Assembly (NCBI RefSeq): GCF_006345805.1
Contig: NW_021828254.1
Span: 1 to 8,953 of the forward strand
Origin: Octopus sinensis
Lineage: Eukaryota
Reading direction: 5' to 3'
Length of the DNA stretch: 8,953 nt
The notes under the pieces were generated by a model. It was not told the origin of the DNA. It ran no database searches and saw nothing but the letters and a program-made list of their open reading frames with translations. Below, one piece after another: positions 2-8,722 of the stretch (positions are counted from its first letter, which is position 1; each line of letters opens with the position of its first letter). The position numbers and the translations under genes were made by a program.

Positions 2-443
2 GCAGATTTAGTGGATTTAAGAAGGTATGCTAGCCTTAATAGCGATAATGGATGGTTATTTCTTTTTGTATAAATTGTAGTTGGTTGTGGTTATAGACTC
101 ATTTTTTAAATTCGCAGTTGCCAGGCGGAAATCAGGGGAGGAAATTTTTATGGTAGGAAATAATTTAATCCCGGAGGAAATAAGATTGGCGTTATTGTCA
201 TTCGATGAAAATGAAGCGGTTGAATCAAGTCAATCGGAGATAATTGGATCTGATTATTTCGAAAACGAGGAAGATTGTTTGAATCAACAAAGTGTGTATG
301 AAAGCCATGTTTTCGCCGGAGAAAAAATGGAAAAAAGGCGGAAATGGAAATTTAATGAAGATTTAGCCGTAGGAGAGAATGTTCTACTGAGGCATGATAT
401 TGATGCAAATCCAAATAATTTTTTATATAATAAAAATTCATGA
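2..443 (+). pseudogene. Degenerate KRBA2/SCAND3-type (Ginger-like) DDE integrase, copy 1, with the central core deleted
   Basis: The frame from nt 2 reads ADLVDLRRYASLNSDNGW (first catalytic Asp motif). The frame from nt 81 reads LVVVIDSFFKFAVARRKSGEEI, then an acidic linker and FNEDLAVGENVLLRHDIDANPNN (typical C-terminal 'VGDxVL..D.D.NP'). The DNG and VER motifs are absent. The fragment runs off the left edge of the window. Confidence 0.75.
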
Positions 444-2061: not shown

Positions 2062-2392
2062 CATTCATGAGGGTGTGCGGCCGAGAGCAGCCACGCGAGC
2101 CGATGTTAGTCTACCTGTGGTTTCAACTTCTTGAACGAGTTTCACGCCACATACGTGGCCCGCACATTTCAGACGAAAGGGGTAGGTTGGCATCGGTACA
2201 GAAATTCGGTAAAATGTCAGCTGGTAAGTCCAATGAGAGTTCGTTGTAGGAGAGTATAATCTCATTGGCCAGATAAAGGCTGCTACAGATCGGAGAAAAA
2301 TATCCTTGCGAGGCCAGGTCCTTTGGCGAGCGAAGTCCAATACCTCCAAACCTGCCGGGAAGTTTCCCTTTCTCCATCCAATGTCGTCAAAT
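2062..2392 (-). pseudogene. CRE-clade non-LTR retrotransposon fragment C (RT thumb to linker)
   Basis: It reads FDDIGWRK / KLPGRFGGIGLRSPKDLASQGYFS...SLYLANEII / PRMW / ARVAA, matching 'W..A.LP.R.GG.G.R...LA' and 'Q..W...AR'. It contains frameshifts. Confidence 0.8.
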
Positions 2393-2868
2393 TTTCCGTG
2401 AATTTGTTTGATTTTAAAATCAAAACAAATTTTCTTTATTTCCTGATTCTTAAACTCAGATCCATTATCTGACTGGAGAATTTGACATGGGCCGTTTAAA
2501 TAAAATAATGATTTTAAACTTTCCGATACTTCTTTGCCTGACTTATTATAAAGAGGCCTGGGGAAGGCAAATCTATAATGATTCTTTTACCTAACCAACC
2601 TGCTATAGACATCAATGACCGCTAAAATGCATTTAAAATCATGATTAACAGTTTAAAATCTTTTTAAGTCTATAAGATCTATCTGAAACCGTTCATTAGG
2701 ACGGGAAGCAAAAACATGGTGATTTATATCTCCAATCTACAATAAAAATGCTTAACCTTTTAAAGGACGTGAAAATTTATAGACTTGACAATTTCTATTC
2801 CTATTCATTCTTCTATAATATGAAGACTGCAAATTCATCCTTTCAAAATTAAACCGGTACTCATCATC
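2392..2868 (-). pseudogene. Degenerate KRBA2/SCAND3-type (Ginger-like) integrase, copy 3 (Zn-finger remnant + D,D of the DDE core), intron-interrupted
   Basis: Minus strand: RNCQVYKFSRPLK / IGDINHHVFASRPNERFQIDLIDLKRF*TVNHDFKCILAVIDVYSR|FAFPRPLYNKSGKEVSESLKSLFYLNGPCQILQSDNGSEFKNQEIKKICFDFKIKQIHGK. It is truncated just before the PQSQG.VER motif. It is not in the ORF track. Confidence 0.9.
2573..2599 (-). other. Putative 27-nt spliceosomal intron in integrase copy 3
   Basis: GTTGGTTAGGTAAAAGAATCATTATAG has GT..AG ends and an in-frame TAA. Removing it gives VIDVYSR-FAFPRPL, the canonical VID.(F/Y)S(K/R)FA motif. Confidence 0.75.
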
Positions 2869-2899
2869 TTTACTAATAAGTAACAATAAAAAACCTTTA

Positions 2900-3450
2900 T
2901 TATAAATATCGGGATTTTTACAACTTCCAATTCTTCTATATCAAAACTTTTTGGATTTTCCTCAACACCTAATTCAACAACAGTGTTGAATCCAGGAATA
3001 CCACGATATCTTTGGAATGGACTAACGCCTAGAAAATAAAAAATCCAATTTACATGTGGATCAATGAGCTCTCTGATTGTACAAAAACACAGCATTTCAA
3101 ATGTGTTTTATCCGCTCTTTTTTATCATCCGAAGCCGTCAATTTGGATAAAATCCTTGTGATTGTTTGATTAAATCTTTCAACTATCGCCTGACTCTGAC
3201 TTTGTTAGGCATCAGAACAACGTGATTAGTGAAATGATTTATTTAGTTTATAGTATGCCAACAAAAATTGGTGTAGATCTTAAATAAGAGTAAAAACTCA
3301 TAATAATTCAAGAAAGTATTTAACAAATGGGAGTTTAAAATCACTCATGTCAGATGATTTTATGATTTAAAATACAACATTTTCATTAATCGTAAATCTA
3401 CAATACTTTTCATTGTAAAATGCTCGATTTTTTACAAGTCTAGTCTGCCT
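2900..3450 (-). pseudogene. Degenerate KRBA2/SCAND3-type (Ginger-like) integrase, copy 2 (catalytic Glu region + C-terminal linker), intron-interrupted
   Basis: QSQSQAIVERFNQTITRILSK (Glu codon at 3180-3178)...AVFLYNQRAH*ST|CVSPFQRYRGIPGFNTVVELGVEENPKSFDIEELE. Upstream there are weak relics (NEKY, IVDLR near 3390-3415). The 5' boundary is approximate. Confidence 0.8.
3029..3053 (-). other. Putative 25-nt spliceosomal intron in integrase copy 2
   Basis: GTAAATTGGATTTTTTATTTTCTAG has a GTA start, a U-rich body and a TAG end. Its length is not a multiple of 3, and removing it joins the VERFNQT frame to the SPF..RG..GFN frame. Confidence 0.8.
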
Positions 3451-3508
3451 AAAAAAATCTTCCCAAAATATATTTTCCAGTAATCTTTAAAAATTTGATA
3501 CTCAAGTC

Positions 3509-4267
3509 ACAAATACTATTCGAGGAAGAGCTTTGAATCATAGATTGTTCAAAACATTATGTATTGATTATGATGCTGACGCCACTGTTCTTTTGTATCA
3601 TACTGATGTTAGATGGCTTTAAAGAGGTCGTGCCTTAACAAGATTTTATATTCTCAGACTTGAAATCAAGTAATTTCTATTTGAAAAAAACTCTGAACTA
3701 TTTGACTGTTTCAAATCTCCTGATTTTGTTATTTTTGTGGCATATTTGGCTGACATTTTCAATCAACTTAACAAGTTGAATTTTTTAATTCAAGGGAAAG
3801 GCATAAGCATTATTAATGCTTCTGACAATATAAATCCCTTCAGGAATAAACTTTTGTTATGGACTCGCCGTATCCAAGACAATAATTTTGCCATTTTTTC
3901 CATGTTGGATAAAGTTGCTAGTGATTCTGATACCTGGATCGTTAATCCATTTGTTTTCAAAATGGAAAAGATGCATGATAGAAACGAAGTTAAAGACGAT
4001 TTGATTGAATTGCAGCATCAACATAACAGAAAATGTTGTACAACTCAAACTCTTTGGAGGTTTTTTGATGCGGTTTGCAAGAAGTGTTCCCGAAACTTCA
4101 AAGAAAGCACTGCAAGTTCTGATACCATATGCAACAACTTTGCTATGTGAATCTGGATTTTCATCTCTACTATATATTACATTCCGACATAACTTTGGCA
4201 AAAAAATATCAAATTTTCTCAAAGGGAATTCACATATGAAAACGGTCTAAAAAATTGTCAAAAATAG
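3509..4267 (+). pseudogene. Buster/Charlie-type hAT transposase remnant (C-terminal half with dimerisation domain)
   Basis: TNTIRGRALNHRLFKTLC...LLYHTDVRWL*RGRALTRF...AYLADIFNQLNKLNFLIQG...KLLLW...WIVNPF...LIELQ, then a frameshift near 4055, then ALQVLIPYATTLLCESGFSSLLYI. It has two in-frame TAA codons and internal deletions. Confidence 0.92.
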
Positions 4268-4575
4268 AAGTTCATTCAACTGAAAATGATTATAAAGAAT
4301 AATGAAAAGGCGTTCTATTAAACTCAGACTTATCTTTAGGTTTTAAATTATAATTATTTATTTGTTAAATCTTTCAATGTTTTTTTAATTAATTTTTAAA
4401 ATATTAAATGTTAGTAGACATAAAAGGATATTTTTAAAGCGATAATTAATTCATCCAGTATTAAATTTCTTAAATTGTTTATGAACTAAGCAAAATAACC
4501 AAAATTGCTAATTATTTTAAAATATACATTTTTTGTGTCTGTTCTGCAGGCTATTTAAAAAAAAAATTTAAAAAG

Positions 4576-4589
4576 ATGCGATCATATAA
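4576..4589. repeat. Target-site duplication, left copy (LINE 3' side)
   Basis: atgcgatcatataa is identical to 8709-8722, and the bases flanking the two copies differ. Confidence 0.92.
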
Positions 4590-4605
4590 TGAATGAATTT
4601 TTATT
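4590..4605 (-). terminator. LINE 3' end: AATAAA followed by a (TTCA)2 tail
   Basis: The minus strand reads AATAAA-AA-TTCA-TTCA directly before the TSD (AATAAA at 4605-4600, tail at 4597-4590). Confidence 0.65.
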
Positions 4606-4618
4606 AACGGAAAAGCCG

Positions 4619-4681
4619 AAAAAAGAGGGAGAAAGTTAATGAGACAACGTATGCCTCTTCTTCGTTGTTTCCCTCTTTTTT
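4619..4681 (-). promoter_or_regulatory. Bulged inverted repeat / hairpin in the LINE 3' UTR
   Basis: There is a 12-bp perfect outer stem (aaaaaagaggga 4619-4630 / tccctctttttt 4670-4681) and a 6-bp inner stem (acaacg 4644-4649 / cgttgt 4663-4668), with a 12-nt bulge and a 13-nt loop. Function is inferred only. Confidence 0.6.
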
Positions 4682-4687
4682 TTTTTT

Positions 4688-7275
4688 TTAATATTTAATT
4701 CGAGAAGAAAAGGCTCTCTCAAGAACACTTCCAACCGTTTCCGTCGCGTCTTCCATCACTTGAGGGATGGGTTGGTCCAACTGGAGTCCATTTGCCAATT
4801 TGATGGCATATCGCCTCGTCTTTTCGAGCTTAGCGATAATGCCATCCCTTTCAGCAGTAGGATACCATCCCTCGAACCCGTAGGTAAGCAATGGTTCGAC
4901 GCACGTTTTATAAACATATAAAAACGTTTCCGGGGAAAGGTGGAAGTGAATTATGCTCCTGAGAATTTGAGCGCATTTCCTTCTCCTCGAGTCGATGTAT
5001 CTGAAGTAAGAACCCTTGGATCCAACTTCAACCCCAAGGTATTTCAGGTTCTCCGTTACTGTAAACCCATAGAGGTTTCTCGGCGGTTTTCGTTTTGCTC
5101 CCTGTTTTGCAATCCAAGTGGCGGTGCACTTTTCTTTTGCAAGCGTCAGTCCTTTTGATATGCACCATTCTTCCACTCTTGTCACGTATCCTTTTAACTT
5201 CCTCCACGAGATGTCTTTTCTCCACGAAGCATCCGTTATTAATATGTCGTCCGCGTAGATCATGAGACGACTGGTAGGATCTTTCGGTTTTGGAATATCA
5301 GCAACGTAAATATTAAAAAGCAGGGGGCTCAAGACCGAGCCTTGAGGTACCCCTCTTTTGAGATCGACAGATTCCGACAAACGGTTTCCGCATCGTATGT
5401 ATGACCTTCTCATTGATAAATAGCTCTTCAGCCAATTGACCGTTTTAGACCCGGGTTTGCTCTTGGCGACACTTTCCAAGAGGCCCAGGTGCCATACGCT
5501 GTCAAAAGCTTTTGAGACATCGAGGCAGATAGCAATAGTCGCTGTATTATTAGCAAGACTAAGCGAGATGACTTTCTCGAGTTCTCCGAAACAATCACCA
5601 CAGGATCTTTTTCGTCGGAATCCCCACTGCTCTACTGCAAGTGCACCTGATTCCTCTACGAAGTTCGAAAGTCTTGTGAAGACAATCCGTTCCATAATTT
5701 TAGAGACGGAGCATATTAGGCTTATCGGCCTATAGTTCTCTGCATGGTCCTTTATTTTTCCAGGCTTTGGAATCATACGTACGATTGACTTTTTCCAAGA
5801 GTCCGGTACGTATCCAAGTCTCCAGCTTGCATTGTATAGTGCGGTCAAGTATCGTAGGAGAATATTTGGAGCATGTTTGAATACAGAAATTGGAATGTAG
5901 TCATGGCCGGGTGCATTATTCTTGCAGCTCATAATTGCGGCATACGTTTCTTCCAACGTTATGTCTCTGCACAGTGGTCCCGTATGACTCAAATTAGCTC
6001 TTAGACTTCTCTGAGCCTCACATATAACTTCTTTCGGAACCATGTCGATCGGATCCACCTCTTGAACTTTTGCCAGTTGACTTCGCAGATGTGAGGGAAC
6101 TTCATCGAGCGGGATATCTATTCCTTCAGTTGTTTTTAGTCGGATCTCTTCTCCTTTGTTCTCCATATTACTCAGTCTGTTGAAAACCTTCCAAAAATGA
6201 GGGTTTTTCTTATTCAGTTTCGAGCATTGACTCTTCCAAGCAAGGTCTGAATGTTTTTTTGCGACATCATTTATCTCTATTTTCACGGTACGAATCTTAT
6301 CCCGAAGACGAATACGATCTATGGGGTCACTGCATCGTCTTAGCTTCTTTTCAAGGTTTCCCTTCCATTTTATAAGTTTTCCCAAAGATTCGTCAATCCG
6401 GGTTTTTCTGTTAGTATTTGACATGATGTATTTCCTGATTGAAGATTTTCGGAGAAAGTCCAGTATAGCTTCTCTGAGAATTTTATCAAGTTTTTCAATT
6501 TGTATATTCGAAGAGATGTTTTGTATTGGATACGGTGTCAAATGCTTTTTCATTGATACCTCAAGGTCCGACCAGATTGTCCGAGACGTATCGTATCCGA
6601 TAAACAGATCTTCGCATATCGTAGATGATGTTCGCATACACAAGGATTGAGGTAGGTGATCACTACCAATGTTTATCTCAATCCTTGGTATGCTGCATTG
6701 ATGAACAAGATCTGCCGATACGAGGAAAACTCCAATACAATCCTCTCCATAACAAGAGAGTGGTTTGGTTCTCGTGAGGTCAAAACACTAAAACCGCAGT
6801 TCTCCGATAATCTGAGGAGTATATTACCGTCCGAATTTGTGTTGGCACATCCGTACGATGTGTGTTTTGCGTTAAGGTCTCCTATTAGAATTCCTCTATC
6901 ATTGTTCTGGAAAAATTCTTCAATAAGATTTTGATAATTCTTCATTGCTTTGGAGTACATAGCTCCGACAGATATCCATCCAAGGGATGTTAGTAGTTTC
7001 AATGTAATCAGTTCGCACAAATTTTGTTCGACGATTTTCAAGTCCCTCACCATCAGATTGTCTTTATAATATATGGATGTCCCAGTGCCAGCCACTGCGT
7101 CAGGTCGCCATGGGATATCAATCGACTGAAAACCATGGATTTTATGATGCTGATTTCCCTTAAGCTTCGTTTCATTAACAACCAATATGTCCATGTTTAC
7201 CGAGCTAACCAAGTAGGTTAGCTCCGTAGCCCGTTTCCGAATTGACCGGGCGTTGATAAGCGTAAAAACGCTCAT
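4688..7275 (-). pseudogene. ORF2: APE endonuclease + reverse transcriptase (~860 aa), one frameshift at ~6755-6762
   Basis: EN motifs: INARSI, VVNETKL, IGDLNAKH, IGSDH (the last lies in the downstream frame). RT motifs: PGHDYI, NYRPISL, QWGFR, LDVSKAFDSVWH, GVPQGSVLSPLLFNIY, YADD, KYLGV. The track ORFs 6673-7275 and 4688-6643 are the two halves. Confidence 0.93.
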
Positions 7276-8633
7276 CTCGTCAAGTTTTGGTGACTGTCCT
7301 CCATAACGAGCGCCACCAGTTCCAGTAAATTTTTAAACGTTTTTTTAGTCGTCGTTTTCGATTTAAGATGGAGGTCCTCCAGTTTTGCTTTTAAATGTTC
7401 AATTGCATTTGTCTTTTCATCTGCCACCTGTATGTTGCATGGTGGTTGTCCCGGGTTTGATTTGGAAGTGTCCCCGAGTTTCATGCCTTTTTTGGGTTGA
7501 GTCATATATTCGGTTGTGTTTACGCCTTGTTCCAACTTTAATTTTGGTTTTTGCGTAGATATAGTGGGTGTCGCAGTTTTCAAAGTGTTTGACATGGATT
7601 CAGAGATATCGTCAGTCTGAACCTCAGCATCCACGAATTTTGTACTTTTATTAAAGTTCCATCCTTTCCAGGTATTTTGTACTTTCACGTTTCCTGTTTC
7701 AGTTTTGATCGTTTTTCCTTGTATTTTCATTGCGGGAGATGTATCAAATTTCAGTTTAGTAGACTGATCTGTAGTTTTCCGAGGTAATCTCTTTTTAAGA
7801 AGCTCCTTGACAACAGGACATCCTCCATAGTTGGCCATGTGTGTTGAGGATCCACAGTTTATGCACTTGGTAGGGTAGTTTCCAGTCAGAGGACATTCCG
7901 AACGGGTATGTGGGCCCTCACAAATGAGACATCTCACTTTTTCTTTACAGAACCGTGAGATATGTCCGAAACGCTGGCAGCGGAAACATTGCGTGTCTGG
8001 TTGCTTGTACCAACTACAGAAAATTTCGCGGAAACCAATTTTCAACCCCATTCGTATGAGAGAGGCTGCTTCACCCCTAGAGGGGATGGTCACTTTAGCC
8101 AGAGGAAGTGGACTTCCATTTCGGAAAAATCTCTCAACCAAAAACCCCGGAGAGATTAGTTTACCCAGATACTTTACAAGTTCCTCGGTTCCAACCCAGT
8201 TCGGGAGGTTCCTAAGCATTATCGCGGACGCACGTGGCTTTGCCTCCTCGATTTTGTGGCCATTTGGTCCAAAGGGCTGGGTATACTTACAGTAGTCAAC
8301 AAAGGCCGAAAGATCCTCTTTACTTTTGAAATCCAAAACGTAGTCGCCCGAGTGACGACGTGTCACTCGAGCCTTACAAGCGATTTCACAACCACAAAGT
8401 GTGTTTGCTATCTCAATAGAATCGAGCTCTGAGTTGTGTATTGATAGTACAATACTCAGGCATACAGATGGCACGGAGGCCGGGATAGATGGCACGGAGG
8501 CCGAGATAGATGGTACAGAGGTCGAGATAGAAGGCACAGAGGCCGAAATAGAGCGCACAGAAGCCGAGATTGATGGCACAGAAGCCTGGATATTCGGGGA
8601 TTTAAAATTCTTCTTGGATTTTGAATAATTCAT
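7272..8633 (-). CDS. ORF1: gag-like nucleic-acid-binding protein, 453 aa
   Basis: It has three knuckles (CFRCQRFGHISRFC, CLICEGPHTRSEC, CINCGSSTHMANYGGC) preceded by an RRM/PRE_C2HC-like segment (IMLRNLPNWVGTEELVKYL). Its stop overlaps the ORF2 ATG (ATGA, 7275-7272). Confidence 0.92.
   Translation of the reverse strand: MNYSKSKKNFKSPNIQASVPSISASVRSISASVPSISTSVPSISASVPSIPASVPSVCLSIVLSIHNSELDSIEIANTLCGCEIACKARVTRRHSGDYVLDFKSKEDLSAFVDYCKYTQPFGPNGHKIEEAKPRASAIMLRNLPNWVGTEELVKYLGKLISPGFLVERFFRNGSPLPLAKVTIPSRGEAASLIRMGLKIGFREIFCSWYKQPDTQCFRCQRFGHISRFCKEKVRCLICEGPHTRSECPLTGNYPTKCINCGSSTHMANYGGCPVVKELLKKRLPRKTTDQSTKLKFDTSPAMKIQGKTIKTETGNVKVQNTWKGWNFNKSTKFVDAEVQTDDISESMSNTLKTATPTISTQKPKLKLEQGVNTTEYMTQPKKGMKLGDTSKSNPGQPPCNIQVADEKTNAIEHLKAKLEDLHLKSKTTTKKTFKNLLELVALVMEDSHQNLTR
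8466..8591. repeat. 6 x 21-bp coding minisatellite in the ORF1 N-terminus
   Basis: Units resembling agatggcacrgaggccgagat start at 8466, 8487, 8508, 8529, 8550 and 8571. They encode IQASVPS/ISASVRS/ISASVPS/ISTSVPS/ISASVPS/IPASVPS. Confidence 0.95.
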
Positions 8634-8670
8634 TGTGAAATTGTTATTAGTATTTTTCTTTTATTTTGCT

Positions 8671-8700
8671 CACAAGAACACCACGTCACAAACACCACGT
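8671..8700 (-). promoter_or_regulatory. Tandem motif in the LINE 5' UTR, possible internal promoter
   Basis: cacaagaacaccacgt / cacaaacaccacgt. The minus strand has ACGTGGTGTT twice, including CACGTG and GACGTG, within 40 nt of the element start. The promoter role is inferred from LINE biology. Confidence 0.4.
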
Positions 8701-8708
8701 GATTAAAA

Positions 8709-8722
8709 ATGCGATCATATAA
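8709..8722. repeat. Target-site duplication, right copy (LINE 5' side)
   Basis: atgcgatcatataa is identical to 4576-4589. Confidence 0.92.

Follow-up and report, generated by a model that had tools for sequence, protein, structure and literature searches.

The described systems that the elements reported here fit in structure are the Ginger2/Tdd transposons, among which TDD-4 itself has introns. Ginger1 and Ginger2/Tdd were defined by Bao, Kapitonov, and Jurka (2010, PMC2836005), and the parts of that paper used here give Ginger2/Tdd an H2C2 + DDE integrase-type transposase with no OTU or Ulp1 tail, an AT-rich target, TIRs of ~50-300 bp with TGTNR termini, and a size of 2.7-6.7 kb; the TSD is 5 bp in TDD-4 and TDD-5 and 4 bp in the described animal Ginger2 elements. 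The same parts give Ginger1 elements TGT ends, an integrase-type transposase, and 1-4 GT-AG introns each, together with 4-bp CCGG/CCGT TSDs, YPYY and GPY/F motifs, and OTU or Ulp1 domains. Ginger elements defined by the rve domain are listed in microsporidia in the portion of PMC5751038 used here, and a literature search pairing Ginger2 with microsporidia gave 0 matches. The microsporidian integrases that serve as references below (Dictyocoela P0002, P0003, and P0285, Nosema granulosis P0005, and Pseudoloma P0286) are unclassified, were deposited uninterrupted, are mostly labelled Gag-Pol or Pol, and are known here as proteins alone.

Miniature introns have been described for the host genes of dicyemids in the excerpts used here of three papers (Zverkov 2019, PMC6543705; Lu 2019, PMC6736024; Hadjez 2026, PMC13644364), including a published median of 27 bp (PMC6543705) and a genome of 67.5 Mb for Dicyema japonicum (PMC6736024). 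In the retrieved portions of the main texts of Lu 2019 and Zverkov 2019, “Ginger” and words beginning with “transpos” are absent. Ginger introns and dicyemid miniature introns are known separately, and their combination was not found in the literature; here the miniature introns lie within transposons. A first-pass annotation made from the sequence had called these elements possibly undescribed, which stands in so far as no paper joining Ginger elements with dicyemids was found among titles and abstract starts (the families could already be listed in Repbase or in the supplements to Bao 2010 and Lu 2019), while introns in Ginger elements were already published (PMC2836005, in the parts used here). 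We read the locus as a dead, duplicated patchwork of fragments left by three integrase-type cut-and-paste families, which likely belong to a dicyemid whose genome was co-assembled with that of a larger animal, and the inserts in it as likely genuine spliceosomal introns; we give this reading a probability of roughly 0.88.

Results

The window, by which we mean the whole 8,953-nt stretch of DNA analysed, is a complete contig in a 2.7-Gb assembly of 13,516 contigs. Of integrase-type DNA transposons it holds no whole element but a duplicated chimera, in which four pieces from three related families (A4-like N terminus, family B start, family B core, and family A) are fused (Table 1). The pieces contain stops and TIRs are absent from the remnant, the family A core (P0001) matches Pfam rve at E 2e-11, and the leader and core pieces of family B lie ~700 nt apart in L012 and L013. 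The same patchwork is found three times on contig C12459 and once on C8699, 91-98% identical, and was therefore copied within larger duplications. A single captured unit is unsupported as a description of it, and the arrangement reads as nested, deletion-fused fragments in segmental duplications. Searches against the same genome returned at least 48, at least 47, at least 72, and at least 97 matches, which are lower bounds because the best 40 or 94 candidates were scored. The segments 2394-2795, 2798-3199, and 3517-3926 are each ~400-410 nt long, an unexplained regularity that may be chance.

Table 1. Transposon pieces and intron sites in the window. Site numbers are codon.phase of P0003.
Feature	Position	Strand	Observation
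C-terminal fragment, more distant G-like family of the same transposon group	81..443	+	tblastn to L104, 56% over 48 aa, E 3e-9
Family A fragment, zinc-finger CxxC (second Cys mutated) and first two catalytic Asp	2394..2795	-	92-95% to L006/L009/L015; ends before Glu
Intron site 168.2	2573..2599	-	27-nt GT-AG, AT-rich, in frame with TAA stop, within the YSR/FAF site; GT..AG in 8/8 family A-type loci
Intron site 122.0	2737..2757	-	21 nt, damaged donor (GG); 22 nt GT-AG in other copies; filled in 8 families
Family B fragment, catalytic E helix (IVERFNQT) to linker	2798..3199	-	87-95% to family B copies; own stop codons
Candidate intron	2868..2894	-	27-nt GT-AG, variable linker, in frame, no stop; sequence only, region not alignable to homologues
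Intron site 281.1	3029..3053	-	25-nt GT-AG, AT-rich, frameshifting, between HxST and xVSPF; GT 15/15, AG 14/15, both ends 14/15 related loci
Family B 5' leader and start codon	3199..3308	-	80% identity to L012/L013; ~700-nt internal deletion joins next piece
A4-like family N-terminal coding fragment	3364..3503	-	73-76% DNA identity to L158 and L097
Decayed intron site 48.2	3379..3406	-	28 nt; GT donor kept, acceptor is AT; aligns with 28-nt GT-AG intron of L158

The rest of the window holds other repeats. A full-length LINE-type element occupies 4590-8704 on the minus strand, with an ORF1 of 462 aa carrying CCHC-like knuckles (by eye), endonuclease and RT frames that overlap at ~6673-6787 with a frame change, and an 18-nt target duplication (4572-4589, 8705-8722) whose empty site is present on C12459. 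Its 699-aa RT frame is uninterrupted, as expected of a LINE, which passes through spliced RNA. Fragments of another DNA transposon, which we take to be hAT/Buster-like, lie at 1906-2061 and 3517-4263, 92% identical to L060 and with no Pfam match on the window ORF. The GC-richer fragments at 1195-1614 and 2067-2393 belong to an abundant repeat with no Pfam match, presumably a CRE/NeSL-type non-LTR retroelement.

The assembly appears to contain two animals. Contig C8901, which bears family B copies as well, has an aldolase gene with five introns of 25-28 nt whose product shares 93% identity with that of Dicyema acuticephalum (the next best among the 120 matches listed is 63%), while a second aldolase, beyond 13 Mb on the long scaffold C29, is 49-60% identical, with exons ~2 kb apart. 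Two aldolases of such contrasting intron size indicate co-assembly, likely of the genome of a dicyemid, a tiny cephalopod parasite, with that of a larger animal, which from dicyemid biology would be its cephalopod host. The window contig holds repeats only, so its assignment to the dicyemid rests on the families it shares. A host with miniature introns, as the first-pass annotation had supposed, is borne out by ordinary genes with introns of 25-30 nt (the aldolase and a host gene in sequencing run X1, below), and the transposon introns resemble dicyemid host introns, as given in the consulted parts of PMC6543705, PMC6736024, and PMC13644364, in size, GT-A/T donor, and bare AG acceptor.

Further ordinary genes with GT-AG introns of 20-30 nt were seen at L053:2012-2962, L096:6345-7100, and L109:1444-2672; we take these to be nucleoside phosphorylase-, EB1-, uracil glycosylase-, and RPL9-like. 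The dicyemid-type aldolase occurs on C8901 (G000) as a near-identical pair ~21 kb apart (281132-282347 and 302565-303780), a duplication or an assembly artefact, and C444, C2376, and C10313 (G000) show the same family H match at identical coordinates (368-1267) and are probably redundant contigs.

Intact relatives of the window pieces are 1.6-2.25 kb long, below the Ginger2/Tdd size range, and consist of TGT..ACA TIRs and a single H2C2+DD35E gene flanked by 5-bp AT-rich TSDs. Family C, 75% identical to family A, is represented by copies ~1.85 kb long, 96-99.8% alike and bounded by imperfect ~60-bp TIRs. Both ends of family A/C elements were recovered in 14 of 25 loci, 12 of these 14 with a perfect 5-bp AT-rich TSD, and TIRs with a 5-bp TSD were found in 11 further loci among 46 examined (families C, B3, B4, A2, and H). 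The ends read TGTGA, TGTCG, and TGTCA, agreeing with the TGTNR termini of Ginger2/Tdd, as do the H2C2 + DDE transposase, the AT-rich target, and the lack of an OTU or Ulp1 tail; the TSD length is that of TDD-4 and TDD-5, unlike the 4 bp of the animal Ginger2 elements, and up to seven introns of 22-34 nt per element set the elements apart. The predictions of the earlier annotation fared well on these copies: TGT-starting TIRs and short TSDs, here of 5 bp, are present, the inserts are retained with their GT and AG ends, and neither LTRs nor RT flank the integrase, which together support a family of intron-containing, integrase-type DNA transposons. One family A element has an insertion of its own, a non-autonomous element of 608 nt (L021:892-1499, equal to L006:672-1280) that shows a 5-bp TSD and termini of the family B type.

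Spliced alignment of single family C copies covers aa 1-449 of P0003, the uninterrupted microsporidian protein, and the spliced gene occupies the entire element. Among 49 homologues, H79, H83, C112, C115, D203, and E239 are invariant and D142 almost so, with a D203-E239 spacing of 35 in P0003 numbering. The nearest named relatives are microsporidian proteins (53-56%), with P0002, P0003, and P0005 colinear over their full length of 424-458 aa. Ginger1, which shares the TGT ends, the integrase-type transposase, and GT-AG introns, was considered and set aside, as the TSDs are not CCGG/CCGT, the protein ends colinear with P0003 aa 449, and homologues have integrase Pfam domains only; the OTU or Ulp1 domains of Ginger1 were likewise not seen. 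By eye, no literal YPYY or GPY/F was found, and the beta-rich C-terminal domain (aa 393-449) of the P0003 model, which has an SPY/HPY string, may be a diverged equivalent. Core identity to KRBA2-like proteins is 33-38%, and a value of at least 30% is a further feature shared with Ginger2/Tdd; the KRBA2-like proteins of Littorina form a neighbouring, separate clade without starred support (91/74, 91/86) in a tree that lacks TDD-4 and Repbase sequences.

The integrase pieces could also be remnants of a Gypsy LTR retroelement or of a Polinton, given that the nearest named homologues carry the label “Gag-Pol polyprotein”, that the predicted model of P0003 (pLDDT 84) matches retroviral and Ty3 integrases (best E 1e-20), and that unnamed integrases, which we take to be Polinton-like, are 36-42% identical over 157-204 aa. 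However, the whole elements between their TIRs hold one gene, with no space for gag, RT, or polymerase, and reading the three coding-strand frames of a whole TIR-to-TIR element revealed no RT, RNase H, gag, or LTR. The homologues labelled Gag-Pol are themselves short and have integrase domains only, whereas RT-bearing polyproteins are 27-30% identical and fall outside the group in the tree. Polintons are large elements with a DNA polymerase, AG termini, 6-bp TSDs, and integrases without the zinc finger, in contrast to these small TGT/5-bp/H2C2 elements. Membership of either class is scarcely credible on this evidence.

Two tiny GT..AG inserts in two different integrase copies had been noticed at first, and the sequence confirms both at their exact positions on the minus strand, one in the family A piece and the other in the family B piece (Table 1, sites 168.2 and 281.1). 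Three inserts had been overlooked, namely the one with a damaged donor at site 122.0, the decayed one at site 48.2, and the candidate in the linker. Both of the original inserts have the miniature size of the parasite's introns and are likely true spliceosomal introns. Across 17 families we catalogued 55 family-site GT-AG introns at 14 sites, 22-34 nt long (median 26 nt) and 78% AT; the catalogue required GT-AG by construction, excludes the variable linker (aa ~290-385) and one doubtful E2 call at 240.2, and skips 14 loci that repeat places or families already covered. The length is not a multiple of three in 33 of the 55, and 17 of the 22 remaining introns carry a stop, so that with 50 of 55 shifting the frame or stopping it, unspliced transcripts would be dead and expression would depend on the host spliceosome. 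Site 168.2 is occupied in six families by introns of 24-32 nt and vacant in B and E, and site 281.1 holds introns of 26, 30, 28, and 24 nt in families B, B2, B3, and B4 and is empty in A, C, and D. In the 19 loci of family C the seven intron segments show GT..AG in 16/16, 19/19, 19/19, 19/19, 19/19, 17/19, and 17/17 covered copies, the intron at site 168.2 (26 nt in the reference copy) being among those with 19/19.

It might be argued that the inserts arose in dead copies as ordinary insertions or as footprints of transposons, with GT and AG at their ends by chance; the window copy is decayed and chimeric, and most introns covered by X1 contigs are retained. Against this, the inserts sit in near-identical, TSD-flanked copies, and their length and sequence vary between families at fixed sites. 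A splice-blind protein-to-DNA alignment of 14 family representatives and the two window pieces to P0003 placed, outside the variable linker, 50 inserts of 17-36 nt, of which 29 have GT..AG within 4 nt at equal length versus 1.2 expected; window intron 1 is such a match, and window intron 2 was found as a 25-nt insert beyond the 4-nt range and is among the 21 of 50 not placed on GT..AG. Third codon positions are the most variable in 19 of 20 exon comparisons (tied in one) when read in the spliced frame, and this bias follows that frame on both sides of the inserts. Together with an exact skip at another site in X1, these observations make chance insertion very improbable.

Run X1 behaves as RNA (one run from one study, its kind not on record): three GT-AG introns (25, 30, and 25 nt) are missing from a host gene covered at depth 424. 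The search of runs with the family C element listed no RNA run, only X1 (share 0.22, of unknown kind) and five label-mates; X2, X5, and X6 have no family C matches, and X3, X4, and X5 have short low-complexity matches on L109, and these blanks were not counted as evidence. Spliced RNA had been proposed as a check on both window inserts, and the result is partial, as in one X1 contig the 26-nt intron at site 431 of a family C relative is skipped exactly, an intron present in 17/17 genomic copies, while this skip concerns the sister family and neither 2573/2599 nor 3029/3053. Three other introns remain in the same contig, and the site-122 intron remains in a second one. The skipping contig is ~95% alike and matches no fetched copy (at most 4/38 alleles), a motif search for its genomic source was blank, and it may derive from an intron-less genomic subfamily in that sample.

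Trees were built with FastTree on 161 rows and with IQ-TREE on 57 chosen rows. In the 57-row tree, from which 4 of the 19 dicyemid rows and most of the unnamed homologues are absent, the dicyemid families occupy four positions, with 4 changes across the whole 5-95% bootstrap range, and their monophyly is rejected (AU p 1.85e-05). Dictyocoela proteins cluster with families A, B, and E at 100/99. The intron sets of the four lineages do not overlap, with nine sites in A/B/E, two in F, two in G, and one in H, the sites 47.1 (F) and 48.2 (A/E) being 4 nt apart. Within A/B/E, parsimony has 168.2 gained on the stem of A, 148.2 and 281.1 gained on that of B, and 182.1 gained in E, and has 48.2, 122.0, and 431.0 lost in B. 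A search for relatives of P0003 in metagenome contigs gave 80 pattern matches and no relative, and a family I copy (L130, on G000:C12471) has no intron called over aa 35-285 and is possibly a recent invader that is still intron-free.

Four tree positions and disjoint intron sets, beside microsporidian proteins, suggest repeated intron gain, and the introns were probably gained inside the transposon families. The introns could instead be real and ancestral, inherited from an intron-rich Ginger ancestor and shrunk with those of the host, so that families differ by loss only. Loss does occur, since family B lacks 48.2, 122.0, and 431.0, which are common to A and E, and site 393.0 is common to A, B, and E; the microsporidian outgroups may be intron-poor for reasons of their own, sites 47.1 and 48.2 could be one slid intron, and Ginger1 elements have introns (PMC2836005, in the parts used here). 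This explanation is nevertheless the less likely one, because the four dicyemid lineages are not one clade and their disjoint sets would demand at least 14 ancestral introns and complementary loss. Under repeated gain, both window introns would postdate the separation of A, B, and E, with other introns being lost in family B, a history that we hold less firmly than the mechanism drawn from the intact elements.

Discussion

The mechanism suggested by the intact elements begins with the host spliceosome, which would excise several 22-34-nt introns, seven from family C transcripts and fewer from those of other families. The spliced message would encode a ~450-aa transposase in which an H2C2 zinc finger and a DD35E core are followed by a C-terminal beta domain; this enzyme would cut at the TIRs and insert with a 5-nt stagger. 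To judge by the TIRs and TSDs, cut-and-paste movement with 5-nt staggered insertion is the most likely mode, and the introns would persist because the element moves as DNA. Partial intron retention in X1 may limit transposase output, which one contig set cannot show. As a tentative history, for which we would give somewhat less than even odds, at least four lineages of an undescribed Ginger-like clade, shared with microsporidia, entered dicyemids separately and intron-free, and each then gained new introns that had the host's size of 22-34 nt from the start; gain and precise loss would be continuing between families, and retention of most introns in transcripts would throttle transposase output.

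These elements are invisible to ORF-based and default gene-finder annotation, and their database relatives are labelled Gag-Pol though they are integrase only. The contigs also reveal what is likely a dicyemid genome inside the assembly of another animal. Animals seldom offer a tractable view of intron gain, and the present set comprises one small gene in 17 families, with 14 intron sites among them; the relatives outside are uninterrupted, and the introns of the host are near the minimum size. Such a system allows direct tests of the source of new introns and of whether introns are born small.
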